From positions 2,672 through 66,671 of the forward strand of contig JBEDKQ010000002.1 of NCBI GenBank assembly GCA_041172085.1: a stretch of DNA of 64,000 bases, read 5' to 3'. Both the position numbers and the translations under genes were made by a program. The notes under the pieces are model-generated. The model saw only the letters and a list, made by a program, of their open reading frames with translations, made no database searches and was not told where the DNA came from. This DNA comes from Pseudomonadota bacterium. Lineage in GTDB: Bacteria; Pseudomonadota; Gammaproteobacteria; Burkholderiales; Burkholderiaceae_C. How positions within the stretch are numbered: the first letter of the stretch is position 1; each line of letters starts with the position of its first letter. Positions 42,816 to 63,192 of the stretch are shown here, one piece after another.

Positions 42816-43271
42816 TTACTCGCTGGCCATCACAATGGCTGCACTCATGGCCAAGACGCCACTTGGCACAGCCCAAGTTGACTTTTGTTGAGGCTGCTCT
42901 GATGTAACAGGGTCCAGATTAACGGCCATCTTGGGTCTGCGTGCATCAATCACACGCGCAGGTCCCACTTCGCCCTTGATCTGCTTGGTCAACTCAGACA
43001 GAGCGCCATGTGCAACACGAACGCTGACCGTGTTGCCACCACCTGCGAGTTTTTGGGCCAACTCAGACGTTGCTTCTTGCGTCCAATCTTGACGCCACTT
43101 CTTCTGCGCAGTGTGTGTCAACCAACGACCCGTATGACGGTTTAGCCGCGGCGGGCATCCAATCAAAATCCAATTTGCTGCTTGTGGTGTCTGGCCACTC
43201 ACAGGTAGCATGAGAATAACTTGTTGGAGTGCATATTGCTTGTCGTCTATGTAAACAATGAATGTTTCCAT
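42816..43271 (-). CDS. Hypothetical protein (151 aa) with C-terminal hydrophobic segment
   Basis: AGGAG SD before ATG 43271; 28 bp downstream of terC on the same strand. Confidence 0.7.
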   Translation of the reverse strand: METFIVYIDDKQYALQQVILMLPVSGQTPQAANWILIGCPPRLNRHTGRWLTHTAQKKWRQDWTQEATSELAQKLAGGGNTVSVRVAHGALSELTKQIKGEVGPARVIDARRPKMAVNLDPVTSEQPQQKSTWAVPSGVLAMSAAIVMASE

Positions 43272-43299: not shown

Positions 43300-44007
43300 T
43301 TAGATGGATTGGGTATCTGATTCGTCTTGCACCTGCTTGCGAGTTGCCCACCAGCCCATTGCCAAGACACCAGCGACAGCCACGATGTAAGTGGCGCCAC
43401 GCGCCAAGTTGTTGATGGTTTCACCGCCATCAAATACGGGATCGAGCAACTTTTCATTGATGATCATTTGCGCTGCGGTGAATGCCAAAACAGCTGCACC
43501 GATGTGAATGATCACGGGCCATTTTTCGACCAAGCGCAAAACCAATTTGCTGCCCAACACCACAATGGGAATACTGATGAGCAACCCAATGACCACCAAG
43601 TCGAAGGAGCCGTTGGCAGCGCCAGCAACACCCAAGACGTTGTCGACACCCATCAAGGCATCTGCCACGATGATGGTTTTCATAGCACCCCAGAACGTGG
43701 TGGCGCCCACACCTTGATGCTCATCCTCAGACGTGTCGGAAATGAGTTTGTAGGCAATCCACAAGAGGCCCAAACCGCCCACCAACATGAGGCCAGGGAT
43801 TTTGAGAAGCCACACCACACCCACCGTCATGGCAGAGCGAACCACAATGGCACCAACGGTTCCCCAGATGATGGCTTTGTTTTGATGTTCTGGTGGGAGA
43901 TTACGCGCAGCAAGCGCAATGACGATGGCGTTGTCGCCAGCTAAAACTAAGTCGATGAGAATGATGGCCAGCAATGCTGACCACCATGGCACTGAAAACA
44001 ATTCCAT
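43300..44007 (-). CDS. TerC family (YjbE-like) membrane protein
   Basis: DLVLAGDNAIVIALAAR, ADALMGVDNVLGVAGAA, GLLISIPIVV. Confidence 0.9.
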   Translation of the reverse strand: MELFSVPWWSALLAIILIDLVLAGDNAIVIALAARNLPPEHQNKAIIWGTVGAIVVRSAMTVGVVWLLKIPGLMLVGGLGLLWIAYKLISDTSEDEHQGVGATTFWGAMKTIIVADALMGVDNVLGVAGAANGSFDLVVIGLLISIPIVVLGSKLVLRLVEKWPVIIHIGAAVLAFTAAQMIINEKLLDPVFDGGETINNLARGATYIVAVAGVLAMGWWATRKQVQDESDTQSI

Positions 44008-44070
44008 GAAAGACCTTCAATAACGATCCGAACAAGTCACAAAGGTCTTAGAGACACCTGTGGCACGAGA

Positions 44071-44230
44071 GATCGAAGGTCTTGCTTTGCTTGTAATGAA
44101 TCAGTTATATGCCCAACAAACCGGGAGTCAAAAAGACGCCGTATTGACGATTTGTTGATCCCCTTGTGTTGCCGGAATTGAATCCGTGCTTTTCACTGAA
44201 CACAAAGGAATTGAGCTACTCCCCAACGAT
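44071..44230 (-). ncRNA. yybP-ykoY (Mn2+) riboswitch
   Basis: Minus strand reads ATCGTTGGGGAGTAGC...CGTCAATAC...GCAAGACCTTCGAT; upstream of a TerC gene, the usual context. Confidence 0.82.
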
Positions 44231-44316
44231 GTGCACATTAGAAATGAAGCAAATTGTTTTGCCAACCCGGCGCTCAATTAGGCTTAGTATTCGTGGGGAT
44301 TTTGTGTCAACTTGGC

Positions 44317-46600: not shown

Positions 46601-46972
46601 ATGAAATTTTGGTTCACAGGAGTCGCATTAGCACTCATTCAAGCCATGGCCAGTGCAGCGTCTGATCGACCTGTATCTGCGGGCTATGACATCATGACCT
46701 CACGCCAATCAGGCAACTGCTTGGCCTGTCATGAATTACCCGGCGTTGAAGGCCTCGTTAGCAATTTAGGTCCAAGCCTGAAGGGCGTTGGAAGCAAGTG
46801 GACCCGAGCAGAGCTGACACAGTGGGTCAAAGATGCACGTCAAATTAACCCTCAAACCCTCATGCCACCCTTTGGCGCTTCAAGCAGCCTGACAAAAGCT
46901 AACCCACCGCGTGCCATCTTGTCAGATGCACTGATTGAACAAGTGGTAGATACTTTGCAATCATGGAAATAA
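46601..46972 (+). CDS. soxX: SoxX-like c-type cytochrome
   Basis: Signal peptide, GNCLACH, LGPSL, INPQTLMPPFG. Confidence 0.8.
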   Translation: MKFWFTGVALALIQAMASAASDRPVSAGYDIMTSRQSGNCLACHELPGVEGLVSNLGPSLKGVGSKWTRAELTQWVKDARQINPQTLMPPFGASSSLTKANPPRAILSDALIEQVVDTLQSWK

Positions 46973-47412
46973 ACCCTCACACTTCACAAATGCTATTGAA
47001 GAATCCAACGCGCAGAACCGGCATGCTATGGGCTGCGGGTGCATGGTGGATGGCCGCACACGGCCAAGCCATCGGCAAAGACAAGCCCATGACGGAATTG
47101 TCATCAGAAGGCATTGAGTTGGTATTTCCACGTCTGGCCGATACGGGCAATGCTGTTCCACTTCAGGCCAACATTCGCGCGCCCCATGGAGCCCACTTGA
47201 AATCTCTGCGCGTGATCTTGCCCGAGAATCCAAATCCTCTGGCTTTGCAACTCAAGTTGCATGGCGAATTGGAAAACTACCAACTCAATACACGATTGCG
47301 TTTGTTGGCCAGTCAATCCGTTTGGGTTGTGGCCAGCTTCAGCAACGGCATTGAGCGCGCCAACAGTGCGCCAACCGTCATCACCTCAACTGCTTGTTTG
47401 GACGATTCCTGA
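46963..47412 (+). CDS. SoxY paralog with non-canonical C-terminal arm (..STACLDDS)
   Basis: P.LADTGNAVP, ENPNP, TRLRL..SQ.V..VA; RR-containing leader; alternative start at 46990. Confidence 0.78.
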   Translation: MEINPHTSQMLLKNPTRRTGMLWAAGAWWMAAHGQAIGKDKPMTELSSEGIELVFPRLADTGNAVPLQANIRAPHGAHLKSLRVILPENPNPLALQLKLHGELENYQLNTRLRLLASQSVWVVASFSNGIERANSAPTVITSTACLDDS

Positions 47413-47741
47413 TGAGCGGCCTCATCCTTTCAAGATTGGCTTTTGCTGGCCCGCTCAAAGCAGGTGCCACTGTTGAGGCGCGCTGGTCTGCAGCACACCC
47501 AATGGACTCTGGCTTTCGCATCGACGACTCGGGCAACAAAATTCCACGCAACATCATCCACACGGTCAAAGTGTTGCTGAACGAGCAATTGATTTTGGAA
47601 GCAGATTTAGGAACCGCCATGACCTCGCCCGTCTATCTGGCCTTTCCTCTCAAAGTGCCAGCAGGTGGCGGCGTGGTTAAAGTGCTTTGGCAAGATGATG
47701 CAGGCCAAGTAGGCGAAACCGTGCAGCGACTCATCCTCTAA
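47412..47741 (+). CDS. soxZ: SoxZ-like protein
   Basis: HPMDSGFR.D..G..IP, W.DD.G; TGATG overlap with the soxY-like stop. Confidence 0.82.
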   Translation: MSGLILSRLAFAGPLKAGATVEARWSAAHPMDSGFRIDDSGNKIPRNIIHTVKVLLNEQLILEADLGTAMTSPVYLAFPLKVPAGGGVVKVLWQDDAGQVGETVQRLIL

Positions 47742-47744
47742 AGC

Positions 47745-48563
47745 ATGCAAGTGTTCGGTTCAAGCGTGCATTGGATCTGTGCCATTGGGCTTGCAAGCCC
47801 TTTGGTGCTGACGGCGCAAACTTCCTTGCAATTGCCAACGAATGCACCATTAACGCAGCAACGATCAGCACTCAGTGGAAATGCTTTCTTAAGCCCTGAT
47901 TTGCTGGCACTTCAAAACGATGCGTCGCGCAACCCAACGCAATTGTGGGTGGCGCAAGGGCAAGAAATTTGGGGTTCGCCTCAAAAAAAGGGCGCATGTA
48001 TCGAGTGTCACAACACGCCCAATCAGCTCAAAAATAGCGCACCTCAATTTCCAAAATGGTCCGTTGAGAGGCAACAACTGATCAACTTAGAAGATCAAAT
48101 ATTGTCTTGCGCACAACGCACGGGTCAGCCCTTCAAAGGCTTGGAAGATCCCAATGTGTTGGCGTTAAGCGCCCTCTTACACCAAGCCAGCCAAGGACAG
48201 GTCATTGCAGTCAAGCCAACACCCGGTTATGAAGCGCAATGGCAAGCAGCACTCAATGAAGGTGCGAAAGAATTCACCACACGCTTGGGCCGAATGAATT
48301 TGGCTTGCACACACTGCCATGACCAAAATATCGGCAAACAAATGCGTGCCGATATCATTTCACCCGGGCACCCCACCGGGTTTCCTATTTTCAAAATGAG
48401 TTGGCAAAGCATGGGCTCGATCGATCGTCGCCTTCGCGCTTGTTATTCAGGCGTGCAAGCGCAAGTTCCGACGCCCAGCAGCCCGGTTCTAAGACAACTT
48501 GAACTGTTTCTCAAAATGCGCGCGCAAGGCATGCCCATGGATGGGCCCTCCTTGCGGCGTTGA
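47745..48563 (+). CDS. soxA: SoxA-like diheme cytochrome
   Basis: CIECH and CTHCH hemes, NLEDQI..C, G.MNLAC, RRLRAC, LELFL..RA.G. Confidence 0.85.
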   Translation: MQVFGSSVHWICAIGLASPLVLTAQTSLQLPTNAPLTQQRSALSGNAFLSPDLLALQNDASRNPTQLWVAQGQEIWGSPQKKGACIECHNTPNQLKNSAPQFPKWSVERQQLINLEDQILSCAQRTGQPFKGLEDPNVLALSALLHQASQGQVIAVKPTPGYEAQWQAALNEGAKEFTTRLGRMNLACTHCHDQNIGKQMRADIISPGHPTGFPIFKMSWQSMGSIDRRLRACYSGVQAQVPTPSSPVLRQLELFLKMRAQGMPMDGPSLRR

Positions 48564-48571
48564 CGCAGAAT

Positions 48572-48596
48572 GAGGGGCCATCCGAAGACGGCCCTC
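48572..48596. terminator. Hairpin between convergent soxA and the Mo-enzyme gene
   Basis: GAGGGGCC-atccgaagac-GGCCCTC; no clear U-tract. Confidence 0.5.
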
Positions 48597-48603
48597 CTAG
48601 CGC

Positions 48604-50808
48604 TTAGATAAATTTCAGGCCAGCGTTTTTCAATGGCAGGTCACGAATGGGCTTGCCGATGGCGGCTGAAATAGCATTGATCACTGCAGGCGCCACCACA
48701 CAAATGGTGGGTTCACCCACACCGCCCCAGAAGTCGTAAGTGGGCACCAAGACGGTTTCAACTCTAGGCATCTGAGCCAGCTTGAGCAACTGGTACGTGT
48801 CAAAGTTCTTTTCTTTGATGCGGCCATTCTCAACGGTGCATTCACCAAAGAAAGTTGCGCTGAGACCCATCACCACACCGCCTTCCACCTGTGCCGCAAC
48901 TTGGTGCGGGTTCACAAAGTGGCCTGCATTGGTGGCCAATACCATGCGCAACACTTTCACTTCACCCTTGGGGCTAACCGTGACTTCGGCCACGGCAGCA
49001 GAATAGGCGCCATAGCCCATGAACTGCGCAATGCCTCTGAACACGCCGGGTGCAGCGGGCTTGCCCCAATCGCCTTTTTCAGCAGCCGCATTGAGCACTT
49101 GCAAGTGTTTGGGGTGCTTTTGCATCAAAGCTTGACGAAATGCCAAAGAATCTTTGCCTGCAGCGCGCGCAACTTCTTCGATGAAACACTCCATATACAC
49201 ACCATTTTGATTGGTGTTCACACCGCGCCATGGACCGACCGGCACATGGGTGTTACGAATGGCGTATTCGGTTAGAAGATTGGGAATGGTGTAACCCAAT
49301 TGAGCATCACCCGGCTGAGACCAAAATCCTTGCAGTTGACGTTCATCCTTGCCATCTTTGATGGCGGAGGGGTTCACCCATGCATTGATCGATTGACCTG
49401 AAGAGCGAAGTGTGAGGCCAACCAAATTGCCCTTGTCATCTAAACCAGCCTTCATGTGGCATTGTGAAACTGGACGATAGTAATCGTGGGTTTGATCTTC
49501 TTCTCGGGTCCAAATCATTTTGATGGGCGTACCCGGAAATTGCTTGGCGATGTTGACAGCTTGTGCCACGTAATCTTGTTGGCCACCTTTGCGACCAAAC
49601 GCACCGCCCAAATCCGTGACGTAGACATCGCACTTCTCCAAAGGCAATCCAGCAGTTTCGGCCAGCACTGCCAATGAGGCCTCAGCATTTTGAGTTGGAA
49701 CCCAAACTTCTGCCTTGTCAGTGGTCCAGCGCGCCGTGCAATTCATGGGCTCCATGGGCGCATGAGACAAGAAGGGTGTGCTGTAAATGGCTTCGACTTT
49801 TTTGAATGCATTGGCAACCGCATTGATGGCATCGCCCTCGTTTCGACCTGCAAAGTCGCCACGTGCAGTCAGACCTTCGCGCACATGTTCGGTAATCATG
49901 GCGCTGTTGACTTTGGCGTTAGGACCTTCATCCCACACAATGGGCAGTTGTGACAATGCATTTTTGGCACGCCACCAGGTGTCGGCCACCACAGCCACCG
50001 TGGTGGCATCGACTCGAACCACACCTTTGACACCGCGCAATGTTTTGACTTTGCTGTCGTCAAAGCTGACAAGCTTGCCGCCAAAGACGGGGCAATCCAT
50101 GACAGAGGCACACAGCATGCCGTCCATCTTCAAATCAATGCCATAGACCAATTTACCGTTGATCTTGCTGGGTGTGTCCAAGCGTTTGACGGATTTACCC
50201 GCAATCTTCCAAGACCGTGGGTCTTTCAAGACCACAGCCTTCATGTCGGGCACAGGCAACTTGGCGGCGGCGGCGGCAACTTTGCCATAGCTTGTCTTAC
50301 GACCAGATACCGTGTGCGTGATGATGCTGTTGGCGGTTGTGAGTTCGGACACCGGTACATTCCACTCATTGGCTGCAGCTTGGACCAGCATCATGCGAGC
50401 CACGGCTCCGCCCCGGCGCACATAATCTTGCGATGTGCGAATACCCCGGCTACCACCAGTGCTCATGTCGCCCCAAGCGCGTTTGCGCTTTAAGTTCTGG
50501 CCAGGCGTAGGCGATTCGGTGGTGATTTTGGACCAATCGCACTCTAATTCTTCAGCCACCAATTGGGCCAAACCGGTGCGCGTGCCCTGCCCCATTTCAG
50601 AACGAACCACGCGGACGACGCACGTATCGTCAGGCTTTACAACCACCCAGATACCCACTTCAGGCGAGGTGTCTGCGCTTTGCGCCAATGCTTCAGAAGA
50701 AGACATTAAGTTAAAGCCCAAGGCCAAACCACCACTGGCCATGGCAGAGGTACCCACCATGAAGCTGCGACGTGAAATTTGAGCAGGAGATGTTTGAATT
50801 TGATTCAC
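48604..50808 (-). CDS. Xanthine-oxidase-family Mo-binding subunit (IorB-like), Tat signal
   Basis: SRRSFM, RSEMGQG, TGGS, HAPMEPMN, GGAFGRK, GPWRGV, QVEGG, GGVGEP. Confidence 0.9.
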   Translation of the reverse strand: MNQIQTSPAQISRRSFMVGTSAMASGGLALGFNLMSSSEALAQSADTSPEVGIWVVVKPDDTCVVRVVRSEMGQGTRTGLAQLVAEELECDWSKITTESPTPGQNLKRKRAWGDMSTGGSRGIRTSQDYVRRGGAVARMMLVQAAANEWNVPVSELTTANSIITHTVSGRKTSYGKVAAAAAKLPVPDMKAVVLKDPRSWKIAGKSVKRLDTPSKINGKLVYGIDLKMDGMLCASVMDCPVFGGKLVSFDDSKVKTLRGVKGVVRVDATTVAVVADTWWRAKNALSQLPIVWDEGPNAKVNSAMITEHVREGLTARGDFAGRNEGDAINAVANAFKKVEAIYSTPFLSHAPMEPMNCTARWTTDKAEVWVPTQNAEASLAVLAETAGLPLEKCDVYVTDLGGAFGRKGGQQDYVAQAVNIAKQFPGTPIKMIWTREEDQTHDYYRPVSQCHMKAGLDDKGNLVGLTLRSSGQSINAWVNPSAIKDGKDERQLQGFWSQPGDAQLGYTIPNLLTEYAIRNTHVPVGPWRGVNTNQNGVYMECFIEEVARAAGKDSLAFRQALMQKHPKHLQVLNAAAEKGDWGKPAAPGVFRGIAQFMGYGAYSAAVAEVTVSPKGEVKVLRMVLATNAGHFVNPHQVAAQVEGGVVMGLSATFFGECTVENGRIKEKNFDTYQLLKLAQMPRVETVLVPTYDFWGGVGEPTICVVAPAVINAISAAIGKPIRDLPLKNAGLKFI

Positions 50809-50819
50809 GATGTTTCTCC

Positions 50820-51326
50820 TTAAACTTTGATTTGTTGTACCAAGGCGGCGACTTCACCGGTGTCTGACTTGGCCAGCTTCTTAGTACCAGCGGCCACATG
50901 AATGGCCTCGCGAATACGCTGGTAGGTACCGCAGCGACAGATGTTGGTCATGGCCTCATCAATGTCCTTGTTGGTAGGCTTGGCTTTGCGTTTGAGTAAC
51001 GCAGATGCCGCCATGATTTGACCCGATTGGCAATATCCGCACTGAGGCACATCCACCTCGGCCCAAGCTTTTTGAACTGGGTGATTGCTGTCCTGCGACA
51101 GGCCTTCAATGGTGGTAATTTTGCGGCCGGCCATGCTAGACCCTGGCACAACACAGGAGCGAATGGCTTGGCCATCGACGTGCACAGTACACGCCCCACA
51201 CTGGGCAATGCCGCAGCCAAATTTGGTACCGGTGAGGCCGACCACTTCTCGAATGACCCACAACAGGGGCATCTCGGGTTCAGCATCAATTTTTTGGACT
51301 TTGCCATTGACATTGAGGGAATACAT
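50820..51326 (-). CDS. (2Fe-2S) small subunit (IorA-like)
   Basis: [32 protein letters not shown]. Confidence 0.92.
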
Positions 51327-51420: not shown

Positions 51421-51444
51421 AAAAAAAAGAGGCCGAAGCCTCTT
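51421..51444 (-). terminator. Intrinsic terminator after the aldo/keto reductase gene
   Basis: Minus strand AAGAGGC-TTCG-GCCTC followed by a T-run. Confidence 0.8.
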
Positions 51445-51478
51445 CAAGGGTTTTCACCCATTACATAGACTTGATGAA

Positions 51479-52492
51479 TCAAGTCAAGTTTTCAAAAACT
51501 TCTGTATCTACCTCAGAGTTTGCCTGCGCGTTGTAGCGGCTGCCTTGCACTGTATTTTGGTTGACAAGCGCTTCAAGCTTGCTGAGAAGCTCGGCACTGA
51601 GTTGCACATTGCTTGCACCCAAATCGTCTAACAAATGCTGTTCACTGGTGGTGCCAGGAATTGGAATGATGTGCGGCGCTTTGTTCAGCAACCACGCCAG
51701 TGCCAACTGTGCGGGTGAACAGCCTGCCTCGTGAGCCAATTGCACATAAGGCGCAAAAAGTTTGAAATTGGCGGCATAGTTTTCGGGTGTGAAACGCGGC
51801 ATCGATTTGCGAATGTCTTTGGCATCCAAGGCTTGAATGTCCAAGGGGCCACACAAGAAGCCGCGGGCTACTGGACTGAAGGCCACAAAGGTGGCGCCCA
51901 ATTCCTCGCAAGCTTGGAGCACCGCAATTTCTGGATTGCGCGTCCACAAAGAATATTCTGTTTGAACCGCCGTGACAGGATGCACGGCATGGGCTTTGCG
52001 CAATGTGCTGGCCGATACTTCGGACAAGCCAATGCTTTGAATTTTGCCTTGACGCACCAAATCACTGAGTGCCCCAACGCTGTCTTCAATAGGGATTTTT
52101 TTGTCCCATCGGTGCAAATAATACAAATCGATCACATCGGTTTGCAAACGCTTCAAGGCGTCTTCGCAGGTCTTGCGGATGGTTTCGGGTCGACCGTCAA
52201 TGACCCTCACCAATTTGCCATCGCCATTGACGTCCACACCTGTCATGCCGCATTTGCTGGCCAAGGTGAACTTTTGCCGGTGCGACTTCAAGACTTTGCC
52301 AACCAAGCGTTCATTGGCGCCGAAACCATAAAGGGCGGCTGTATCGAAAAATGTGACGCCAGCATCTAAGGCGGTCAGCAAAACCTTTTCGGCTTGCGCT
52401 TCTGATACAGGTGCACCGTATGCATGGCTCAAATTCATGCAGCCCAAGCCAATTTCACTGACTTGGAATTGTCCGAGTTTTCTATTTTTCAT
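51479..52492 (-). CDS. Aldo/keto reductase
   Basis: IGLGCM, DTAALYG, DLYYLHR, IGLSE, IPIPGT. Confidence 0.9.
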   Translation of the reverse strand: MKNRKLGQFQVSEIGLGCMNLSHAYGAPVSEAQAEKVLLTALDAGVTFFDTAALYGFGANERLVGKVLKSHRQKFTLASKCGMTGVDVNGDGKLVRVIDGRPETIRKTCEDALKRLQTDVIDLYYLHRWDKKIPIEDSVGALSDLVRQGKIQSIGLSEVSASTLRKAHAVHPVTAVQTEYSLWTRNPEIAVLQACEELGATFVAFSPVARGFLCGPLDIQALDAKDIRKSMPRFTPENYAANFKLFAPYVQLAHEAGCSPAQLALAWLLNKAPHIIPIPGTTSEQHLLDDLGASNVQLSAELLSKLEALVNQNTVQGSRYNAQANSEVDTEVFENLT

Positions 52493-53382
52493 TCGTTCAC
52501 CTTGTGGTAATTTTGGGCCCAAGCGGGCAAAGGCGCAGATCTGTGCAACACGTCTTGATGTAACCAGGTGGCGCTTTTGCGTGCGCGCTCGGCCACAGTT
52601 TCAAGTGGTAACTGTTGGTAATCGTCATTGAAGACTTCAAAGCTGTAGTCGCCACGATAACCGATCCGCTCTAATCTGAGAACCAAGTCTGCCAGTTGCT
52701 CGCTGTGCACGCCCTCACCTGGAAAAACGCGGAAGGTCCGTGCGGTGGTCATGCGCTCTTCAAAGGAGGGCGTTTCATGCCACATGAAATCGGACAACTG
52801 AGCCAAGTAAATGCGTTCTGGATCAATGTCCTCGATGGCATCGAGTGGCGTTTTGGCGGCAAATATATGAAAGGAATCAATGCCGATGCCTAGGTTAGGA
52901 CAATCTGCCCGGCACACCACATCCCAACTGCTTGTAAATTCGTTGATCGTTCGGCCCCACGACAATCCCTCATAGGCCACCTTGATGCCCAAAGGAATGG
53001 CCATCATGGCCAACTTCTTCAAGTCCTTGGCAATCAAATCAAGATCATCTGTTGCATGGCGCGAGGTTGATGAACAGGCCAACAAAACTTTGCTGCCAGT
53101 GGCTGCGCACATCTCGAGCATCGACTTGGCAATGTCAACTTTGTAGCTGTGCAAATGACCTGACAAGCCTTCAAAGTCTCTGAGCACTTGAAAACCTGTA
53201 GGTCGCAAGCCACTGTTTTGCACAGCTTTGACCGCAGCTTTGACACCCCCGGGGTGTCCTACCAAATCGCGCGCCATGAGCATGACCTGTGAGAAGCCCA
53301 CACTTTTCATGGCCTCCAACTTGGCCTCGAGTGAGCCTGCCATGGTGATGGTGTCCATGCCATATCCGTCGAGCATATTCAT
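52489..53382 (-). CDS. Sugar-phosphate-isomerase TIM-barrel protein, probable 3-dehydroshikimate dehydratase
   Basis: FQ.LRDFEG, AYEGLSWG, DSFH, QLSD, R.FPGEG, SFEVFND, resembling the QuiC1 catalytic domain; pathway context. Confidence 0.75.
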   Translation of the reverse strand: MNMLDGYGMDTITMAGSLEAKLEAMKSVGFSQVMLMARDLVGHPGGVKAAVKAVQNSGLRPTGFQVLRDFEGLSGHLHSYKVDIAKSMLEMCAATGSKVLLACSSTSRHATDDLDLIAKDLKKLAMMAIPLGIKVAYEGLSWGRTINEFTSSWDVVCRADCPNLGIGIDSFHIFAAKTPLDAIEDIDPERIYLAQLSDFMWHETPSFEERMTTARTFRVFPGEGVHSEQLADLVLRLERIGYRGDYSFEVFNDDYQQLPLETVAERARKSATWLHQDVLHRSAPLPAWAQNYHKVNE

Positions 53383-53391
53383 GACAGATCC

Positions 53392-54273
53392 TTAAGCAAC
53401 CAGGTGAACCAGCTCAAACGACACTGAGCCCAATGCACTGCGCGTTAAGGCGCCCCTGTCTTCAGGGTGCAATTCTTTGGACTCTACAAATTCAACCCCA
53501 TTGGCCTTCAGTGTTTTGACGGCCTGCGCCACATCTTTGACACCAAAGCCTATGCGCTTCAAGGACTCGGGTGCATCGTCGCCCTCCATCCAAGGATCGG
53601 GCTCAATCAATTGCCAAAGAAATTGTCCGCACGGGCTTTTCATCAATTTGCCTTTGGGCAAAATACCGAAACGCTCTTCGTCTGAAATAACGCTGAAGTC
53701 AAACATGTGTTCGTAGTAGGCCATCCAATCTTCACTGCGGGACGCACCGATGTACTGCACCACGCCGAAGTAACTCATGCCCTCAACGGCAGCAGGATGC
53801 TGATCAACAGTTGGAATGGGTTTGAAGTCAATGTCGTAAATGGAAAACTCTTGCCAGCGATCGACAAAGTAATAACGCGTTCCACCAGGGCCATGAATGG
53901 CGGGAATGTGCAACTCCATGGCTTGTGCATGGCTGGCCACAGACCAGGCACCTAAATCGATGCAACGGGTGTGTGCCTTGAGTGCATCTTGGACCCGAAA
54001 AGCAACTGCAGAAATTTCAGCTTGACCATCGGCAGTGGCGCTCACGCGTGCATCATCAGGGTTGGCATTGACGACCAAGTTCATGCCACCTTGTCGGTAC
54101 AGGGTTACTTCGCGTGAACGATGACGGGCAATGGGCCGAAAACCCATGGCCTCTAAAACTTGACCTAAGGCTTGTGGGCGATTGGTGGCGTACTCAATGA
54201 ACTCAATGCCTTGAATGCCCAAGCGATTGGGCATTTCTGGGACGTCTTCACGATCGGTTGTGCGTAAATTCAT
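53392..54273 (-). CDS. HPPD-like (VOC-fold) protein, probably non-catalytic
   Basis: GIEFIEYA, HRSR.V.LYRQG, IPAI.G.GG..YFVD; the HPPD His ligands are not evident. Confidence 0.75.
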   Translation of the reverse strand: MNLRTTDREDVPEMPNRLGIQGIEFIEYATNRPQALGQVLEAMGFRPIARHRSREVTLYRQGGMNLVVNANPDDARVSATADGQAEISAVAFRVQDALKAHTRCIDLGAWSVASHAQAMELHIPAIHGPGGTRYYFVDRWQEFSIYDIDFKPIPTVDQHPAAVEGMSYFGVVQYIGASRSEDWMAYYEHMFDFSVISDEERFGILPKGKLMKSPCGQFLWQLIEPDPWMEGDDAPESLKRIGFGVKDVAQAVKTLKANGVEFVESKELHPEDRGALTRSALGSVSFELVHLVA

Positions 54274-54295
54274 GGCTTACTCCAAACTAAAATTT

Positions 54296-55129
54296 TCAGC
54301 CCAAACGGGCCACGCTGCGCAACACGTCTGCTGTCGTTGTCTTGAAGCCGAAGTATTCCAAATAGGCTGGAATTTGCTCAAACAACATGTCTGAGCCTAC
54401 TTGAACTCGGCATCCTCTTTTTTGTGCAGCCAGCAGGAATGACGTCATCTCTGTGCGCATGACCACTTCACCGACAAACGTATCGGGAGAAATTCTGGCA
54501 ACATCCATTGGCAAAGGATCACCCTCGTTCATGCCCATGGGTGTGGCGTTGACCACCAGATCATGCCCCTCAGGATCGTTGGAACCTGTGTGCACCTCGA
54601 TCTTAGGATACTCATGCTTGAGGCGCTGTGCCAAATCTTCACATGATTGCATGTTGACATCGAAGAGGCTGATGGCCTTGATATTTTCAGCCGCCAAAGA
54701 AGCTGCAATGGCCGAACCCACGCCACCGGTACCCACGACCAAAACGCGCTTGTCTGTCAGAACAAATCCTTTTCTTTGCACACCGCGCACAAAGCCTGCA
54801 CCGTCAAACATGTCACCGACCAAACGGCCGTTTTGATCCAATTTGACAGCGTTGCAGGCACCGGCCACTTTGACGGTGGGTGTGACCTCGTCTAGCAATG
54901 TCAAGGTTGTGACTTTGTGTGGCATGGTGATCAAGGCCCCACGAATGTTGGACAACTGGAAGACAGACTTTAAAAAAGCGGGGTAATGTTCAGCCTTGCA
55001 GCCCATGGGAACAACCAAGGCATTGATGCCCTCTTTTTCAAAGTAAGGGTTGTAAATCAATGGCGATTTAAAACTGTGCGTTGGATAGCCAATGTGGGCG
55101 ATCAACTCTGTGTTGCCGTCAATGTTCAT
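54296..55129 (-). CDS. Shikimate/quinate dehydrogenase family
   Basis: SFKSP, TMPHK, GACNA, DG.GF, GTGGVG, NATP.GM. Confidence 0.88.
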   Translation of the reverse strand: MNIDGNTELIAHIGYPTHSFKSPLIYNPYFEKEGINALVVPMGCKAEHYPAFLKSVFQLSNIRGALITMPHKVTTLTLLDEVTPTVKVAGACNAVKLDQNGRLVGDMFDGAGFVRGVQRKGFVLTDKRVLVVGTGGVGSAIAASLAAENIKAISLFDVNMQSCEDLAQRLKHEYPKIEVHTGSNDPEGHDLVVNATPMGMNEGDPLPMDVARISPDTFVGEVVMRTEMTSFLLAAQKRGCRVQVGSDMLFEQIPAYLEYFGFKTTTADVLRSVARLG

Positions 55130-55140
55130 GTTCTCAAAAT

Positions 55141-55178
55141 AAAAAAGCGAAGCCTTAAGACACGCTTAAAGGCTTCGC
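55141..55178 (-). terminator. Intra-operon terminator/stabilising hairpin after the TRAP binding-protein gene
   Basis: GCGAAGCCTT...AAGGCTTCGC followed by T6 on the minus strand. Confidence 0.7.
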
Positions 55179-55225
55179 GTTGTAGCGATGTCAAAGGCCT
55201 TGCGACAGACCCTGTTCATCTCAAG

Positions 55226-56221
55226 TTACTTGCGCAACTTGGCCAATTCAGCTTGCAACTCAGCCACGGTTGCAGCAATGGGTTCACCATGTTTTGCAAT
55301 TACGGGCTTCATTTTTTCACGCAAAGCAGTCATTTCGGCAGCTGGCAATGTGGTGATCTGCATGCCATTTTTCTTCAAGTTTTCGGTGATGCTGGCCACT
55401 TGGTTGCGAGACTGTGCGCGTTGAAATTTGACAGACTCTGCCAAGGCTTCTTCTATGATTTTCTTTTCTGCAGCAGACAAGGTGTCATAGAATTTTTTGC
55501 TGATCAGCACAGACTGTGGGTTGTACTGGTGGTTGGTCATGACCAAATGCTTTTGCACTTCGTACAACTTGGCGGAGTTGATGGTGGCAACTGGGTTTTC
55601 TTGTCCGTCAACCGCTTTTTGCTCCAAAGCTGCGTACAACTCTGGGAAAGGCAGCGGTGTGGGGTTGGCACCCAAAGCTTTGACCCAGTCCACGTTGATG
55701 GGGTTGGGAATGACGCGCAACTTCAAGCCTTCAATGTCAGCCAACTTGTTGATGGGGCGCTTGCCGTTCGACATGTTGCGAAAACCGAGTTCGTAGTAAC
55801 CCAAGCCCACAATGCCTTTTTCCAAAAGCTTGTCGTGCATTTTTTTACCGAAGGCCCCATCCACCACCGCATCGGCTTCTTTTTCATTCCCAAACATGAA
55901 GGGGAAGTCAAACACCGCAAAGTCTTTCACTTGGCTGGCCAAGATGCCGGAGTTCAATGAAACCATTTCCAAAGAACCGCCCTGCACTGCCGACACATTG
56001 GCTTGGTCGTTGCCCAAGGCGCCACCTGGGAAGACATTGACTTTGAGCTTTCCACCTGATTTGCTCTCAACCACTTCTTTGAATTTTTCCATGCCCAAAA
56101 TGATGGGATGGCCCGCCGAGTTTTGATTTGCAAACTTAATGGTTTTCTCTTGAGCAGAAGCCATGCCCATAGCAGCCAAGGCAAGCGTTGCCAAAACAGT
56201 CTTGATAAAAACACGTTTCAT
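55226..56221 (-). CDS. TRAP substrate-binding protein (DctP family)
   Basis: Signal peptide, GFRN, GLKLRV, ALEQKAVDGQENP. Confidence 0.92.
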   Translation of the reverse strand: MKRVFIKTVLATLALAAMGMASAQEKTIKFANQNSAGHPIILGMEKFKEVVESKSGGKLKVNVFPGGALGNDQANVSAVQGGSLEMVSLNSGILASQVKDFAVFDFPFMFGNEKEADAVVDGAFGKKMHDKLLEKGIVGLGYYELGFRNMSNGKRPINKLADIEGLKLRVIPNPINVDWVKALGANPTPLPFPELYAALEQKAVDGQENPVATINSAKLYEVQKHLVMTNHQYNPQSVLISKKFYDTLSAAEKKIIEEALAESVKFQRAQSRNQVASITENLKKNGMQITTLPAAEMTALREKMKPVIAKHGEPIAATVAELQAELAKLRK

Positions 56222-56308
56222 GTCAGTGTCTCCTGATGAAATGAATGGTCGTACGCCGAACAAGGATTCCACTGCCTGGCGTACCCGGACAGACTGTGGA
56301 AAGAAAAA

Positions 56309-57586
56309 TCAATAAAACCAACGCGCTGGCACCATCACCAAAGCTGGCCAAGCCACCATGGCAAACATGATGGCAAACTGCGCCACCATGAACGGCATCA
56401 CGCCACGGGTCACTTCGTCCATGCTGACTTTGCCAACGCCTGCAACGGCGTTGAGTACGGTCCCCACAGGCGGTGTGATCAAACCAATGGCATTGTTGAT
56501 GATGAACAAAACGCCAAAGTAAACAGGGTCGATGCCTGCCGCCTTGACCACCGGCATCAAGACGGGGGTCAACAGCAGAATGGTGGGTGTCATGTCCAAC
56601 GCGGTTCCGACAATCATTGTGATGATCATGATGGTTAGCATCAACAAACGAGGGCTGTCCAGCAAGGGTTGCAACAACGAAATTAATTCTGCTGGTAAAT
56701 TAGCAACTGTGATCAACCAAGCAGAAACCATTGCAGCAGCCACCAAGAACATCACAATGGCGCTGGTTTTAGCGGCCGAGACAAACAAAGGAAAGATCGA
56801 CTTGAAATTCAATTCCTTGTACACAAACAAAGAGATGAGCAGCGCATAAACCGCAGCAACCACGGCAGCCTCGGTGGGCGTGAACACACCGAACTTTAAG
56901 CCGAACACCACAATCAGTGGCAATACCAAGGCCCAAGTTGCCTCACGCATGGCAACACCAATTTCTGACATTGATTTGCGCGGTGGCACAGACACCACTT
57001 CACTGCGCGCAAGCCACCACCACGTGACCCATAAAGCAGCGCCCAACATGATGCCCGGCACAATGCCCGCCATGAAGAGCTTGGAAATGGACACGTTGCC
57101 AGCAACACCAAAAATGACGAAGCCAATGCTTGGCGGAATGACTGGGGCAATGATGCCTGCAGAAGCGATGAGGCCGGCAGAGCGTGCACGGTCATGTCCC
57201 GCCGCCACCATCATGGGCAAGAGCAAAGAGGCCAATGCGGCAGCATCTGCTACAGCCGAACCCGACAAAGCCGCCATGATGACAGCCGCCATGATGGTGA
57301 CATAGCCCAAGCCACCTTTGATGTGGCCCACACAGGCCATGGCGAAATTAACAATGCGGCGTGACAGCCCCCCCGCATTCATGATTTCACCCGCCAGCAT
57401 GAAAAATGGCACAGCCAGAAGCGGAAAACTGTTCGAACCTTCAATGAGGTTTTGGGCCAAGATTTGCGCGTCAAACATGTTGAGGTGAACCATCAAGGCC
57501 ACGCCACAAAGCAGCAAAGAAAACGCAATGGGCACCCCCAGTGCCATGGCACCCAGCAAAGAAAGAACGAATACAGCAATGGTCAT
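56309..57586 (-). CDS. TRAP large permease
   Basis: LAVPFFMLAG, SGSAVAD, IPPSI, ITPPVG. Confidence 0.92.
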   Translation of the reverse strand: MTIAVFVLSLLGAMALGVPIAFSLLLCGVALMVHLNMFDAQILAQNLIEGSNSFPLLAVPFFMLAGEIMNAGGLSRRIVNFAMACVGHIKGGLGYVTIMAAVIMAALSGSAVADAAALASLLLPMMVAAGHDRARSAGLIASAGIIAPVIPPSIGFVIFGVAGNVSISKLFMAGIVPGIMLGAALWVTWWWLARSEVVSVPPRKSMSEIGVAMREATWALVLPLIVVFGLKFGVFTPTEAAVVAAVYALLISLFVYKELNFKSIFPLFVSAAKTSAIVMFLVAAAMVSAWLITVANLPAELISLLQPLLDSPRLLMLTIMIITMIVGTALDMTPTILLLTPVLMPVVKAAGIDPVYFGVLFIINNAIGLITPPVGTVLNAVAGVGKVSMDEVTRGVMPFMVAQFAIMFAMVAWPALVMVPARWFY

Positions 57587-57608
57587 TGGAAAGTCTCTGT
57601 TGGATGGC

Positions 57609-58136
57609 TTAGCGTGATTCGCCGTGCGGTGTGTCTTCGGACTCTTGAAACATCACCAGTTCTTCATTCTTGGTTTGACCTGTGATCAATTTAAAAAAAT
57701 CAAGCGCGATCATCAAGCCGCCCAGTACCGCAAAAATGATGCCGGGAAAGTAAACCCAACTCAGCGACACTTCCATCACGGCGCTGGTACTTGTCCAGTT
57801 GATGACGGCCTGCTCGTAGGCACCTTTGTACAAAAGACCACAGACAAACAGCATGAGCAGTTGTGACACACCCATGCAGATTTTTTTGCCCACAGGACCC
57901 AGCCGCCCTACCAGCATGTCTGTGCCCAAATGCTCGTGAGAACGAAGGGCCACGATGGCGCCCATGAATGTCATCCAAACAAACAACCACCGACTGAGCT
58001 CTTCAGAAAGCGTGATGCCCGAATTGAAGCCGTAACGCAGGAATACATTGCCGAAGACCAAGACCACCATGCCAGCCATGCAAGCTGCAATGAGGTACTC
58101 GATACCTTTGCAAGTGATGTCGAAAAAACGGGTCAT
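57609..58136 (-). CDS. TRAP small permease
   Basis: NVFLRY, SEELSRWLFVW.TF.GA, HL..D. Confidence 0.9.
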   Translation of the reverse strand: MTRFFDITCKGIEYLIAACMAGMVVLVFGNVFLRYGFNSGITLSEELSRWLFVWMTFMGAIVALRSHEHLGTDMLVGRLGPVGKKICMGVSQLLMLFVCGLLYKGAYEQAVINWTSTSAVMEVSLSWVYFPGIIFAVLGGLMIALDFFKLITGQTKNEELVMFQESEDTPHGESR

Positions 58137-58276
58137 CTATGGATTCCTAGAACTTGAAGCACAAACCATAATGTACGAACTAGTTAGTTTTTAATGATCA
58201 GTAATAACCCTTAGGTTTCTAGCGCATGGCTGGCTACCTGTTATGCAAAATTGAAATAGCTGAATCCGTCCGTCTT

Positions 58277-58939
58277 TTAAAGACAAACGTAGCTCATGAG
58301 CATGTCCACCACTTGGGTTTTCTTCAAGGTCTGCGCTTTGCCTTGCGGTGTCTTGCCTTTGAAGATCAAACCAAACGTGTGCTGATTCGACACATTGAAA
58401 AAAGTCAGCGCAGAAATTGCGGAGTGAATTTCTAAGGGCGTGAGATTCTTTTTGAAGACGCCCTTCTTCAGACCCCGCGTGTACAAATCTTGGATGGTCT
58501 GCAATGCGGATCCGTTCAGTTTTTGAATTTCTTTGCTTTGGGCCAAATATTCACCACGCTGCACGTTCTCGCTCATGACCAATCGAATGAACTCTTCGTT
58601 GCTTTGGTGATGGTCGTAGGTGAATTCAACCAAACGCTTTAAGGCCTCTACTGGCTCTAGGTCGTTCAGGTGAAGGTCCGCTTCAATTTGTCGCATGCGG
58701 CCATAAGCGGCCTCAAGCACGGCCACATACAAGCCCTCTTTGCTACCGAAATAGTAGTAAATCATGCGCTTGCTGGTGCGTGTGGCGGCCGCGATTTCAT
58801 CAATTCGCGCCCCAGCAAGCCCCTTGCCAGCGAACTCCTGGGTCGCAACGTTCAAGATTTCGGACATGGTCCGCTCAGGATCGTTGGTTCGACTTGGGCT
58901 GCTGGTTTTGCGACGGGTTGAGGAAACAGGTGTCATCAT
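58277..58939 (-). CDS. TetR family regulator
   Basis: EFA.KGL.GARIDEIA..TSKRMIYYYFGSKEGLY. Confidence 0.92.
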   Translation of the reverse strand: MMTPVSSTRRKTSSPSRTNDPERTMSEILNVATQEFAGKGLAGARIDEIAAATRTSKRMIYYYFGSKEGLYVAVLEAAYGRMRQIEADLHLNDLEPVEALKRLVEFTYDHHQSNEEFIRLVMSENVQRGEYLAQSKEIQKLNGSALQTIQDLYTRGLKKGVFKKNLTPLEIHSAISALTFFNVSNQHTFGLIFKGKTPQGKAQTLKKTQVVDMLMSYVCL

Positions 58940-59033
58940 TTGATAAATGTACTACTTGGTTAATTATCAAATGAAAAGTGCGTCAAGGTCAACAGGCCAT
59001 CACCTTGGTCAAGTGATGGCCTTAGAAACGTCT

Positions 59034-59990
59034 TCAAGCGTTGAGTTGCAACTCCAATTGATGCAAAACTTTGTAACAAGGTAAAACCTGCGCAACGCTA
59101 GAGTTTGGCTCTCTGCCCTCTTTGATGGCGGCAAAGAACTCGCGGTCTTGCAACTCAATGCCGTTCATAGACACATCCACTTTTGAAACGTCGATTTGCT
59201 CTTCTTTGCCAGTGTACAAATCGTCATAACGGGCAAGGTATGTGCCTGTGTCACCGATGTAACGGAAATAGGTGCCCAGCGGCCCATCGTTGTTGAATGA
59301 CAAACTCAACGTACAAATGGCGCCGTTGGCCGCCTGCAACTGGATGCTCATGTCCATGGCAATGCCAAGGCTTGGGTGAATCGGCCCTTGAAGCGCATTG
59401 GCTTTGACAATGGGACTGCCCGCCTGGTAAGCAAACAGATCAACCGTGTGAGCTGCGTGGTGCCACAGCAAATGATCGGTCCAGCTGCGCGCTTGGCCCA
59501 GGGCATTCATGTTGGTGCGACGGAAGAAATAGGTCTGCACATCCATTTGCTGAATGTTAAATTCGCCCGCTTTGATTTTTTTGTTAACCCATTGGTGGCT
59601 GGGGTTGAAACGACGGGTGTGTCCGCACATGGCCACTTTGCCAGTTTCTTTGGCCAAGCGAACCACCTCTTCTGCGTCTGTCCAGCGATCGGCCAAAGGA
59701 ATCTCAACTTGCACATGTTTGCCTGCCTTCAGGCAAGCAATGGACTGCGCTGCGTGCATTTGCGTGGGCGTGCAAAGAATGACCGCATCTACTTCGGGCA
59801 ATGCCAAACTGTCAGCCAAGTCTGTGGTGACATGACCAATGCCGTACTTGTCGGCCACTTCTTTGGTTTTGGCAAATTCACGACCAATCAGTGACACCAC
59901 TTCAACGCCATCGATGTTCTTGATGCCATCCAGGTGTTTGATACCAAAAGCACCGGCACCGGCCAATGCAACCTTGATTGTTTTAGACAT
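59034..59990 (-). CDS. ligC: 4-carboxy-2-hydroxymuconate-6-semialdehyde dehydrogenase (LigC/PmdC)
   Basis: GAGAFG.KHL, TPTQMHA, VEIP, HTRRFNPSHQ, RSWTDHLLWHH; operon context. Confidence 0.9.
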   Translation of the reverse strand: MSKTIKVALAGAGAFGIKHLDGIKNIDGVEVVSLIGREFAKTKEVADKYGIGHVTTDLADSLALPEVDAVILCTPTQMHAAQSIACLKAGKHVQVEIPLADRWTDAEEVVRLAKETGKVAMCGHTRRFNPSHQWVNKKIKAGEFNIQQMDVQTYFFRRTNMNALGQARSWTDHLLWHHAAHTVDLFAYQAGSPIVKANALQGPIHPSLGIAMDMSIQLQAANGAICTLSLSFNNDGPLGTYFRYIGDTGTYLARYDDLYTGKEEQIDVSKVDVSMNGIELQDREFFAAIKEGREPNSSVAQVLPCYKVLHQLELQLNA

Positions 59991-60005
59991 GTTGTTTTCC
60001 TCAGT

Positions 60006-61317
<1,312 letters not shown>

Positions 61318-61318
<1 letters not shown>

Positions 61319-62247
61319 TAAATTTTCTCCTCTGGCCAATACAAACGCATGGGATTGTCAACCAACAGTTTCTTTTGTTTCTCTGGCGTGGTGGCAATGT
61401 GAGGAATGAAATCGACCAACAAGCCATCGTCAGGCATGTGCTTTTTCAGGTTGGGGTGCGGCCAATCGGTGCCCCACAATACGCGGTCAGGAAACTCGTC
61501 CACAATGGCTTTGGCAAATGGCACCACATCTTGGTATGCGTTTTGTTCGCCATTCAAGGCTGGTGCGCCCGTGACCGACAAGCGCTCTGGACAGGTCACT
61601 TTGCACCACACATTGTTGTGCTCGCGCATGAACTTCAAGAACAATTGGAATTGAGGCCCATTCACGGGCAACTTAACATCGGGGGTGCCCATGTGATCCA
61701 CCACCACGGTGGTGGGCAAACCTGTGAAGAAATCCCACAATTCGGGCAAATCGACGGCCTCGAAGTAAATCACCACGTGCCAACCCAGCTTGGCAATGCG
61801 ACCGGCAATTTCCATCAACTCCTCTTTGGGCGTGAAATCGACCAAGCGCTTCACAAAATTAAAGCGAACACCGCGAATGCCAGCATCATGCAAAGCTTGC
61901 AACTCTTCATCTGAAACGCTGCGTTTCACGCACCCCACACCCCTTGCTTTGCCACCTGAATTTATCAAGGCGTCGACTGTGGCGCGGTTGTCTGAGCCGT
62001 GGCAAGTTGCACCCACCACAATGTTGCGGGCAAAACCCAAATGATCACGCAGCGCATAAAGTTGCTGCTTAGAGGCATCACAGGGTGTGTATTTGCGCTC
62101 GGGTGCATAAGGGAATTCAGCGCCTGGGCCAAACACGTGGCAATGTGCATCGACAGCACCTTCAGGCAATTTGAATTTGGGTTTGCTAGGGCCAGAATAC
62201 CAGTCCAGCCAGCCAGGGGTCTTTTGAAATTCCATCACTTCTCTCAC
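61318..62247 (-). CDS. ligI: 2-pyrone-4,6-dicarboxylate hydrolase (LigI/PmdD)
   Basis: DAHCHVFGP, RGVRFNF, VDHMG, WGTDWPHPN; start may be 62235. Confidence 0.9.
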
Positions 62248-62282
62248 TCAGGTTAAAGACAAATTGTTGCAGCGGTTGAATC

Positions 62283-63137
62283 TCAGTCGCGCGCAGTACC
62301 GCGCAGTCCTGATCGGTGAATAGCCTTGCTTAAGTCACCATTGGACTCAAGCTCTTTGGCAAAATTTTGAATGTATGGGCGGGCCACATCGCGGCCTTTG
62401 GGAATGGCAATGGCCAAGTTTTCGAGGCCCCATCGGCCGTCTAAAACTCGGCTACCAGGCAAACCATCGGACATTTCAAACAAGATGCCTTTGTTGGTTG
62501 CAAATGCATCAATCTGTTTGGCGTTCAACATCGCTTGCGCCTTGGCCAATGAATCGGCAGGTATCACTTTGGCTTGCGTGTAGAGTTGCGTCAGCACACC
62601 TTGAGATGAACTGCCCTGGCTCACACCGACGCGAATGCCTGCTTGGTCGATTTCATTGACGGACTTGAGGGGGCTGCTGCCCACGACCAAATAGCCCAAT
62701 TCCAACTTCACCATAGGGGACGTAAAGTCCATGTCTTTCGCACGCACTGCTGTGGCATTGGTAAATGTGATGTCCACTTTTCCAACTTTCAGGGCGTCTA
62801 AAACTTGCGCAACGCGGTCAAACTCAACCACTTGAACCGGCACGTTCAAACGTTTTGCCAACGCTTTGCCCAGATCTAGCGCAATGCCCACACTCTCACC
62901 CGTCTTGGGATCTTTGACCCAAGATGTCGGACTGCCTGGGTAAACACCCACCCGCAACGTACCTGTTGGTGCAAGTGCCTGCCGAACTTCAACAGGCGCT
63001 GAAACAGCTTGTGCAACCGTTGATGAATCTGCATTGGCGTTTAAAAAAGCCAAGTTAGAACAACCCACCAATGCAGCACCTAGCAGGACGGCGAAGGACA
63101 AGCGACCCGCCCTGTAAAGTAGATGATTAGAAATCAC
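62283..63137 (-). CDS. Family-3-type ABC substrate-binding lipoprotein (orphan)
   Basis: Lipobox LVGC; LAPTGTLRVG, G.A.DLG, AIAIPKGR. Confidence 0.78.
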   Translation of the reverse strand: MISNHLLYRAGRLSFAVLLGAALVGCSNLAFLNANADSSTVAQAVSAPVEVRQALAPTGTLRVGVYPGSPTSWVKDPKTGESVGIALDLGKALAKRLNVPVQVVEFDRVAQVLDALKVGKVDITFTNATAVRAKDMDFTSPMVKLELGYLVVGSSPLKSVNEIDQAGIRVGVSQGSSSQGVLTQLYTQAKVIPADSLAKAQAMLNAKQIDAFATNKGILFEMSDGLPGSRVLDGRWGLENLAIAIPKGRDVARPYIQNFAKELESNGDLSKAIHRSGLRGTARD

Positions 63138-63192
63138 GTGAGACCCTGTTGAATGGTTGGTTGAAGGTGCACAAAAATACGTTGGGGCAGAC

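Follow-up and report, generated by a model that had tools for sequence, protein, structure and literature searches.

The stretch analysed here (the window) is 64,000 nt of contig JBEDKQ010000002.1, with positions numbered from its first letter. It carries a compact soxX-soxY-soxZ-soxA unit facing the gene pair iorA-iorB, which is predicted to encode an exported molybdenum (Mo) hydroxylase of the xanthine-oxidase family. As the initial annotation described, all six genes are present and neither soxB nor soxCD lies in the window; the only soxB- and soxC-like matches of the genome sit on another contig, C20. The genes and signals of the locus are as follows.

46601-46972, plus strand: soxX, monoheme c-type cytochrome, CxxCH at 40-44 and Met ligand in LMPP
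46963-47412, plus strand: soxY, variant carrier with a twin-arginine-like leader (TRRTGM) and a single Cys, Cys145
47374-47412, plus strand: non-canonical carrier arm TVITSTACLDDS, Cys codon at 47395-47397
47412-47741, plus strand: soxZ, no leader, PF08770
47745-48563, plus strand: soxA, diheme, with both CxxCH motifs, Cys122 and the active-site Arg/Cys233
48572-48596, no strand assigned: hairpin, candidate terminator in the gap where the soxA and iorB stops converge
48604-50808, minus strand: iorB, xanthine-oxidase-family Mo subunit with a twin-arginine translocation (Tat)-type leader, MoCoBD_1/2
50820-51326, minus strand: iorA, two [2Fe-2S] Cys sets, no leader, Fer2 and Fer2_2
51426-51445, minus strand: intrinsic-terminator-like hairpin 3′ of an aldo-keto reductase gene, z-score -3.7, followed by a T run

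The soxX and soxY genes overlap by 10 bases, the soxY stop and the soxZ ATG share one base, and soxZ and soxA are separated by 3 bases. The convergent stops of soxA and iorB lie 40 bases apart, in agreement with the earlier description of a convergence on a Tat-type Mo subunit and a 2Fe-2S subunit. The hairpin between these stops folds on the minus strand at -22.4 kcal/mol (z-score -3.4, equalled by none of 200 shuffles) and on the plus strand with a z-score of -1.0; the terminator scan did not list it.

Alignments confirmed the predicted SoxX, SoxY, SoxZ and SoxA as intact, with haem, carrier and catalytic residues present. SoxX (66.8 bits against TIGR04485, cut-off 61) and SoxA (175 bits against TIGR04484, cut-off 110) passed their family cut-offs; the C, C, H and M ligands of SoxX were invariant among 35 aligned rows, and the catalytic and haem columns of SoxA were likewise invariant. 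SoxA aligned best to diheme SoxA structures (1h31, E 9e-27; also 2c1d), and the two CxxCH motifs and the RRLRAC Cys noted initially were found at 85, 188 and Cys233, together with Cys122 of haem 1. The thiolate-type active site was kept in 93 of 95 SoxA sequences, 88 with the strict pattern and five with variant neighbours; three SoxA types are named in the accessible text of PMC4891895. SoxZ matched PF08770 (65.2 bits) and TIGR04490 (61.7 bits, under the cut-off of 76). SoxY matched PF13501 (50.6 bits), and its model (pLDDT 92) gave a TM-score of 0.75 to SoxY 2oxg, with a free C-terminal tail whose last four residues were of low confidence.

The sole Cys of SoxY, Cys145, lies within the C-terminal TVITSTACLDDS, where the arm reads TSTACLDDS and not GGCGG. 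The string ITSTACLDDS was present in 92 of the 120 SoxY homologues listed, and its Ala-Cys pair was invariant in 35 aligned rows. Among 99 variant SoxYs, close relatives included, Ala occupied position -1 in 95 and Asp or Glu position +2 in 92. The carrier Cys is kept, as noted initially, and Ala-Cys-hydrophobic-acid describes the arm better than glycines replaced by acids; it is a conserved pattern of its own, which would imply a dedicated partner. In the hidden Markov model comparison suggested by the initial annotation, the best NCBIfam match was TIGR04487 (SoxY-related AACIE arm protein) at 49.1 bits (cut-off 172), and the canonical TIGR04488 gave 43.7 bits (cut-off 125), against 165.9 bits for the SoxY of C20. 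The supposed kinship to AACIE-arm paralogs was therefore supported by the ranking, while both cut-offs were missed. Intermediate SoxYs with ESACLD arms scored about 150 on TIGR04487, to whose members the window SoxY is 22-30% identical. In a FastTree phylogeny, the GGCGG and ASGCGM rows formed their own 99% group, the window branch was long, and the variant arms were not recovered as one clade. The ASGCGM arm marks a third SoxY type, present in six genomes of the window's family (L062, L063, L218-L221), where soxY adjoins soxZ, two genes for flavoproteins like flavocytochrome c sulfide dehydrogenase (FCSD) and a cytochrome gene, without soxXA, soxB or iorAB. SoxYs without GGC were excluded in PMC11237559, according to the accessible part of that paper.

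IorB is assigned to the IorB-type Mo hydroxylases of the xanthine-oxidase family by its domains, predicted fold and catalytic Glu, Gln and Arg. Gln373, Arg528 and the base Glu699 (GVGEP) are kept, and Gly presumably stands at the position of the substrate Glu of xanthine oxidase. The N-terminal region of IorB carries SRRSFM, judged by eye to be of twin-arginine type; IorA, leaderless and with eight Cys in two 2Fe-2S sets, is likely co-exported with it. The closest solved structure was 8gy3_C (E 2e-73 by sequence, TM-score 0.89 for the fold of the model, 27% identity), from an aldehyde dehydrogenase that we take to include a cytochrome c subunit. Because of this relationship, and of the Gly at what we take to be the purine-binding Glu position, our guess for the substrate of IorAB is an aldehyde. 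Another IorB paralog of the same genome (C45:15489-18146) is apparently split into two frames, as is its iorA.

A separate canonical sox cluster, which the initial annotation proposed to look for, is present on C20: soxC, soxD, soxY (GGCGG), soxZ, soxA, soxX and soxB, plus a flavocytochrome c pair. This cluster is complete, and the window sox unit is therefore a second copy in its genome. The two SoxA proteins are 25% identical, and the FCSD of the genome lies on C20, the window module having none. The ratios of nonsynonymous to synonymous substitution (dN/dS) against two relatives were 0.06-0.13 for the four sox genes and 0.02-0.04 for iorAB and neighbours, which points clearly to purifying selection on the sox genes, though at values above those of iorAB; chance or decay as the origin of the sox unit was ruled out by the former values. 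Parts of soxX-Y-Z and iorB were covered by RNA-library contigs from four freshwater runs, contigs in which DNA is possibly present.

The linkage between the two units was examined in 401 genomes of the phylum and in a family set of 201 genomes, in which each genus is represented by about one genome. In the phylum sample, 13 genomes above the TIGR04487 cut-off and nine sub-cut-off loci with similar arms gave 22 loci, and the IorB clade adjoined the variant SoxY in all 22. In the family sample, the 52 top-scoring new matches comprised four ASGCGM arms and 48 variant arms; among the latter, 44 loci were linked to iorB (39 co-oriented, five convergent like the window) and four were not, one of these at a contig edge. 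The predicted linkage of this IorB clade regardless of orientation was thereby borne out; it spans two classes (Alpha- and Betaproteobacteria) and survives inversion. No iorB was found in the stretch examined around the control loci, namely five canonical clusters, one soxXA-only locus and six ASGCGM-arm loci. The gene order in the phylum sample was iorA-iorB-(cytochrome-FCSD)-soxX-Y-Z-A on one strand, with the FCSD 3′ of soxA in G253; the FCSD flavoprotein was present in 16 of these 22 modules and in 2 of the 48 family loci. Eight FCSD-type BLAST labels were confirmed by Pfam, and a further label, 'fccB' beside soxX in L016, was dropped, the protein being ferredoxin-reductase-like. A Methylobacterium plasmid carries the full iorAB-sox operon under NCBI's own gene names.

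Among 16 loci close to the window, 13 had the same convergent iorB, two ended too early and one (L017) had a fragmented iorB; the convergent adjacency was also kept in five further genera and in a single metagenome locus not belonging to the close group (L142). In this freshwater lineage, soxXYZA is inverted to face iorAB and has diverged fast, on long branches. As the inverted units stay adjacent, co-transcription is dispensable while adjacency persists. Of 22 supported IorB splits, 16 recurred in a SoxA+Y+Z tree of 32 loci (13 near-duplicates of the window lineage left out), which shows a shared history and no more, kin not being independent.

Viewed from the enzyme, with two IorB candidates scored per genome of the phylum sample, the clade was set off by a gap between 27 non-self matches of at least 766 bits and the next match at 548 bits. 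A full module accompanied 22 of these 27, soxX-soxA only accompanied one (G206), and four had none. Matching by coordinates in the family sample placed 41 of 47 IorB matches beside the module; four lay apart from it and two were at contig edges. The 79 best metagenome IorB loci comprised 15 with Sox genes, 34 without any over 2.5 kb or more of downstream sequence and 30 that were too short, so that the enzyme stands without the module in 34 of 49 informative loci, although the module could sit elsewhere in those genomes. The dependence is one-way: the module almost always occurs with the enzyme, and the enzyme often occurs without the module. Sox-free IorAB copies were found in G351, G543, G463, G556 and G592, as well as in G262 and G350, genomes in which the module or a canonical SoxY is encoded at another locus. 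The active-site (cofactor and pocket) columns did not differ between the 38 sox-linked and the 40 sox-free IorBs compared, which argues that the substrate is probably not carrier-bound. On a tree made by a quick method, sox-linked and sox-free IorBs were interleaved (10 and 9 single-label groups), and the top-ranked columns distinguishing them followed lineage.

Reduced or altered forms of the module were also found. The locus L072:7783-11916 (G206) reads iorA-iorB-soxX-soxA with no soxYZ, and this genome, a single contig rated complete, gave neither a SoxY nor a soxB match; G256 gave only a SoxY match of the long fused type. In L161:7074-11453, iorAB-soxY-soxZ is followed by a gene for a DoxX-family membrane protein, with no soxXA in the 8 kb downstream. 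In L153:5523-6671 (minus strand), a 382-aa SoxX-SoxA fusion with three CxxCH motifs, which passes both NCBIfam cut-offs, faces iorAB-soxYZ. Two Sinorhizobium plasmids and G350, all sox-free, have a stand-alone small cytochrome c gene directly before iorA, and most sox-free metagenome loci have no cytochrome gene within 3.5 kb.

Further loci showed peculiarities of their own. In L017:11476-20209 (G592), iorB fragments lie among insertion-sequence-like open reading frames (ORFs), and an intact sox-free iorAB of the clade (L235) is found on that contig at a distance of about 370 kb. L212:383-7476 (G535) has a window-like neighbourhood (rpoD, soxXYZA, aldo-keto reductase and protocatechuate genes) without iorAB, the clade iorAB being on another contig. 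In L011:1363-2238, soxZ and soxA share one frame with one CxxCH, probably through a frameshift or assembly error. L006, titled Bordetella parapertussis, has genes 93% identical to the window IorB and is syntenic with freshwater Comamonadaceae; it is probably a mislabelled metagenome-assembled genome. L074:5690-9027 (G302) contains two tandem soxX-soxA pairs, with neither soxYZ nor iorAB in the 16 kb covered.

Upstream of iorAB, the window carries a hydroaromatic and protocatechuate 4,5-cleavage cluster (51479-63900, minus strand) with genes for an aldo-keto reductase, TIM-barrel and HPPD-like proteins, a shikimate-dehydrogenase-like gene, a TRAP transporter and a TetR regulator, then LigC-, LigB-, LigA-, LigI- and LigK-like ORFs, these five named by eye. 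The terminator-like hairpin at 51426-51445 stands between iorAB and these genes, and membership of iorAB in the upstream operon was rejected on that account; shikimate-dehydrogenase-like genes lay close to iorB in 5 of the 79 metagenome loci. On the other side, a small ORF without a Pfam match (42816-43271, minus strand) lies directly 3′ of terC, and the RNA-library contig depth was very high at 44000-44316, upstream of terC, which may represent a structured leader RNA.

In 8 of the 22 module genomes of the phylum sample, all eight rated 100% complete, soxB gave no match; the other 14 have soxB. Because of these eight genomes, the module is not ordinary thiosulfate oxidation, and its postulated independence from SoxB held. 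We take soxY2 of Bradyrhizobium diazoefficiens and the Bradyrhizobium genes bll2737-bll2736 to represent this module. The accessible text of PMC5748708, citing another paper, gives soxY1 as the only soxY gene of B. diazoefficiens essential for thiosulfate oxidation, and that of PMC1698941 lists bll2737-bll2736 among iron-enzyme operons. Calling the system undescribed, as the initial annotation did, goes too far: one paragraph from 2013 (PMC3797975, in the part seen) mentions this set of genes in Starkeya novella as a second sox cluster, soxX2Y2Z2A2F2 (Snov_1982-1977), with a xanthine-oxidase-family Mo enzyme (Snov_1975/1976), assigns it no function and judges it possibly functionless. The SoxAX and SoxYZ of that cluster were undetected by proteomics, and transcripts were very low on glucose, methanol and thiosulfate (PMC3797975, same part); the Snov locus tags had no match in its readable supplements. 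The module was not described in the portions seen of PMC11237559, PMC2864759, PMC9774590, PMC4053727 and PMC3570799, and searching by title and abstract start found no other description of AACIE SoxY or of soxY/soxA with isoquinoline 1-oxidoreductase, most subscription papers, the SoxAX review included, being outside reach. The window unit is a divergent, rearranged variant of a system noticed before but unexplained.

An enzyme that is viable without the module, with an unchanged active site, and a module that nearly always accompanies the enzyme and has kept its loading chemistry and arm form the pattern of an accessory. We tentatively favour, as a possibility, that SoxXA loads sulfane sulfur onto the SoxY Cys and that SoxY restores the Mo=S ligand of IorAB in the periplasm as an optional accessory. 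Supply of the Mo sulfido ligand had been offered initially as an alternative, and it fits the observations better than replacement of SoxB/CD. The module may then be a Sox-derived periplasmic repair system whose own arm re-installs the sulfido ligand on an exported Mo hydroxylase, a description that we regard as doubtful. Repair is favoured because the exported enzyme is beyond XdhC, and SoxXA, SoxYZ and FCSD are periplasmic makers or carriers of sulfane sulfur; the FCSD of the phylum-sample modules and the YZ-only locus L161 also count for it. Xanthine-oxidase-family enzymes depend on this terminal sulfur. According to the accessible text of PMC13653126, the sulfido ligand can be lost spontaneously or through reactive oxygen and can be re-inserted with sulfide under reducing conditions, and XdhC receives the Mo sulfur from a protein persulfide; the reference list of PMC10254830 contains a title on the interconversion of sulfo and desulfo xanthine oxidase by a rhodanese/thiosulfate/thiol system.

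The gene pair, its conservation, the intact catalytic residues of SoxA and SoxY, the independence from SoxB and the one-way dependence are established; beyond them, we infer the following course. XdhC would supply sulfurated cofactor in the cytoplasm, and IorAB would be exported by Tat and oxidise a small substrate in free form, an aldehyde being the most likely. Its Mo=S would be lost over time in the oxic periplasm. SoxXA, with the linked FCSD where present, would oxidatively attach sulfur from sulfide, polysulfide or thiosulfate to Cys145 of SoxY. The Ala-Cys-hydrophobic-acid arm, no longer SoxB-shaped, would enter IorB and donate sulfane sulfur to the reduced Mo, and SoxX may also hand electrons to the respiratory chain. 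Several observations weigh against this course. A search of 703 columns for a docking signature gave no extra conserved patch in sox-linked IorBs (three columns marked them, against three in the reverse control). G206, which keeps iorAB-soxX-soxA, is left unexplained by the repair model and contradicts it as a universal rule. Each of the five module genomes checked encoded XdhC, so initial sulfuration does not require the module; with an xdhC-like match on C63 of the window's own genome as well, the module as an XdhC replacement was rejected. Other exported IorB clades do without the module (5 of 5 outgroup loci), and FCSD is rare in the family sample and absent from the window module. The variant arm is bulkier than GGCGG, and the Mo site of this family is presumably buried. 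To our knowledge, no such Mo=S repair is known.

The initial annotation had the Mo enzyme act on cargo bound by SoxXA to the variant SoxY, replacing SoxB/SoxCD in a second carrier-based oxidation of sulfur or organosulfur. The conserved arm pattern, the dispensability of soxB and the 39 co-oriented loci among the 44 linked in the family sample, the genes forming one operon in most genomes, agree with this, and action in trans would be possible in those sox-free IorAB genomes that encode the module or a canonical SoxY at another place. An obligate role as carrier processor was not upheld, however, the clade being common without the module and with identical active-site columns; in G206 SoxY gave no match, in G256 the sole match was of the long fused type, and the loci showed no releasing hydrolase. 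Moreover, xanthine-oxidase-family chemistry removes hydride from carbon, and sulfane sulfur offers none. We consider cargo oxidation unlikely. Distinctly unlikely, in our view, is that SoxXA serves as the cytochrome subunit of the enzyme, a three-haem acceptor in place of the missing flavin adenine dinucleotide (FAD) or cytochrome subunit, SoxYZ being carried along in a redox or stabilising role. It would account for iorAB without either subunit, for the cytochrome c gene before iorA in the sox-free Sinorhizobium plasmids and G350, for the retention of soxX-soxA only in G206, for the fusion in L153 and, presumably, for the cytochrome c subunit of the 8gy3 enzyme; the thiolate-type active site in 93 of 95 SoxAs, the purifying selection on SoxYZ, the sox-free metagenome loci without a nearby cytochrome gene and the YZ-only L161 speak against it.

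IorAB might instead oxidise an organosulfur compound and free sulfide or a thiol, which SoxXA/SoxYZ and FCSD would capture without required contact. The one-way dependence, the frequent FCSD, the absence of a docking signature in IorB and the separate transcription units in the window lineage suit such an arrangement, but an unloading enzyme is missing, the 79 metagenome loci revealed no conserved neighbour of transporter, regulator or catabolic type, and the departure of the arm from GGCGG is left unexplained; we rate it very unlikely. Redundant isoenzymes of thiosulfate oxidation, using the SoxB/CD of C20 and lying beside iorAB by inherited synteny, would be conceivable from the soxB and soxCD of the window's own genome and the 14 of 22 module genomes similarly equipped. 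This is already largely refuted and its probability is close to negligible: eight module genomes gave no soxB match, the linkage outlasts inversion and extends over two classes, and the partial texts of PMC3797975 and PMC5748708 report, respectively, the near-silent second cluster of S. novella, thiosulfate included, and the sole requirement for soxY1 in B. diazoefficiens.

Surveys count such soxXYZA units as markers of thiosulfate oxidation since their SoxA and SoxX score above the usual thresholds; the units nevertheless occur in genomes without a soxB match and track a molybdenum enzyme. Any of the three leading mechanisms would be a new use of the Sox carrier, and the natural sox-linked and sox-free forms of one enzyme make the question directly testable. 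If the repair reading is true, it would be the first case of bacteria restoring a desulfo molybdoenzyme in vivo, and the first in which a Sox carrier serves enzyme maintenance and not energy metabolism; the system would occur in both Alpha- and Betaproteobacteria and, in the window's family, in roughly one fifth of the sampled genera.

Compared with canonical Sox (SoxXA, SoxYZ, SoxB and SoxCD of Paracoccus pantotrophus and Rhodovulum sulfidophilum), the window unit shares the SoxY fold and carrier Cys, the diheme SoxA with catalytic Arg/Cys and the SoxX haem ligands, with SoxA and SoxX over their family cut-offs; it differs in having no GGCGG arm, soxB or soxCD and in SoxY and SoxZ scores below the canonical cut-offs, and modules of its type also occur in genomes without a soxB match. 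The TIGR04487 family has the same type of arm and gene context, IorAB adjoining SoxY in all 13 genomes above the cut-off, whereas the window SoxY lies far under that cut-off, on its own long branch and at 22-30% identity. The second cluster of S. novella, as far as the part of PMC3797975 seen describes it, likewise combines SoxXA and SoxYZ, without SoxB/SoxCD, with a two-subunit xanthine-oxidase-family Mo enzyme, and shares its genome with a complete canonical sox cluster; there, however, it is a single operon with the SoxF flavocytochrome, whereas the window has convergent units without FCSD, and the two are likened by gene content. The large subunit of the Gluconobacter oxydans membrane-bound aldehyde dehydrogenase (8gy3_C) resembles IorB in its Tat-type large subunit, 2Fe-2S small subunit and catalytic Glu; unlike it and other IorB-type Mo hydroxylases, the window IorB has the clade motifs GGSRG, WRGVNxNxN and WGGVGEP and no cytochrome subunit gene. 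With XdhC/NifS4 cofactor sulfuration in Rhodobacter capsulatus, the proposed mechanism would share a protein persulfide as donor of the Mo sulfido ligand; that system is cytoplasmic, acts on the cofactor before insertion and uses unrelated proteins, whereas the process proposed here would repair a folded, exported enzyme.

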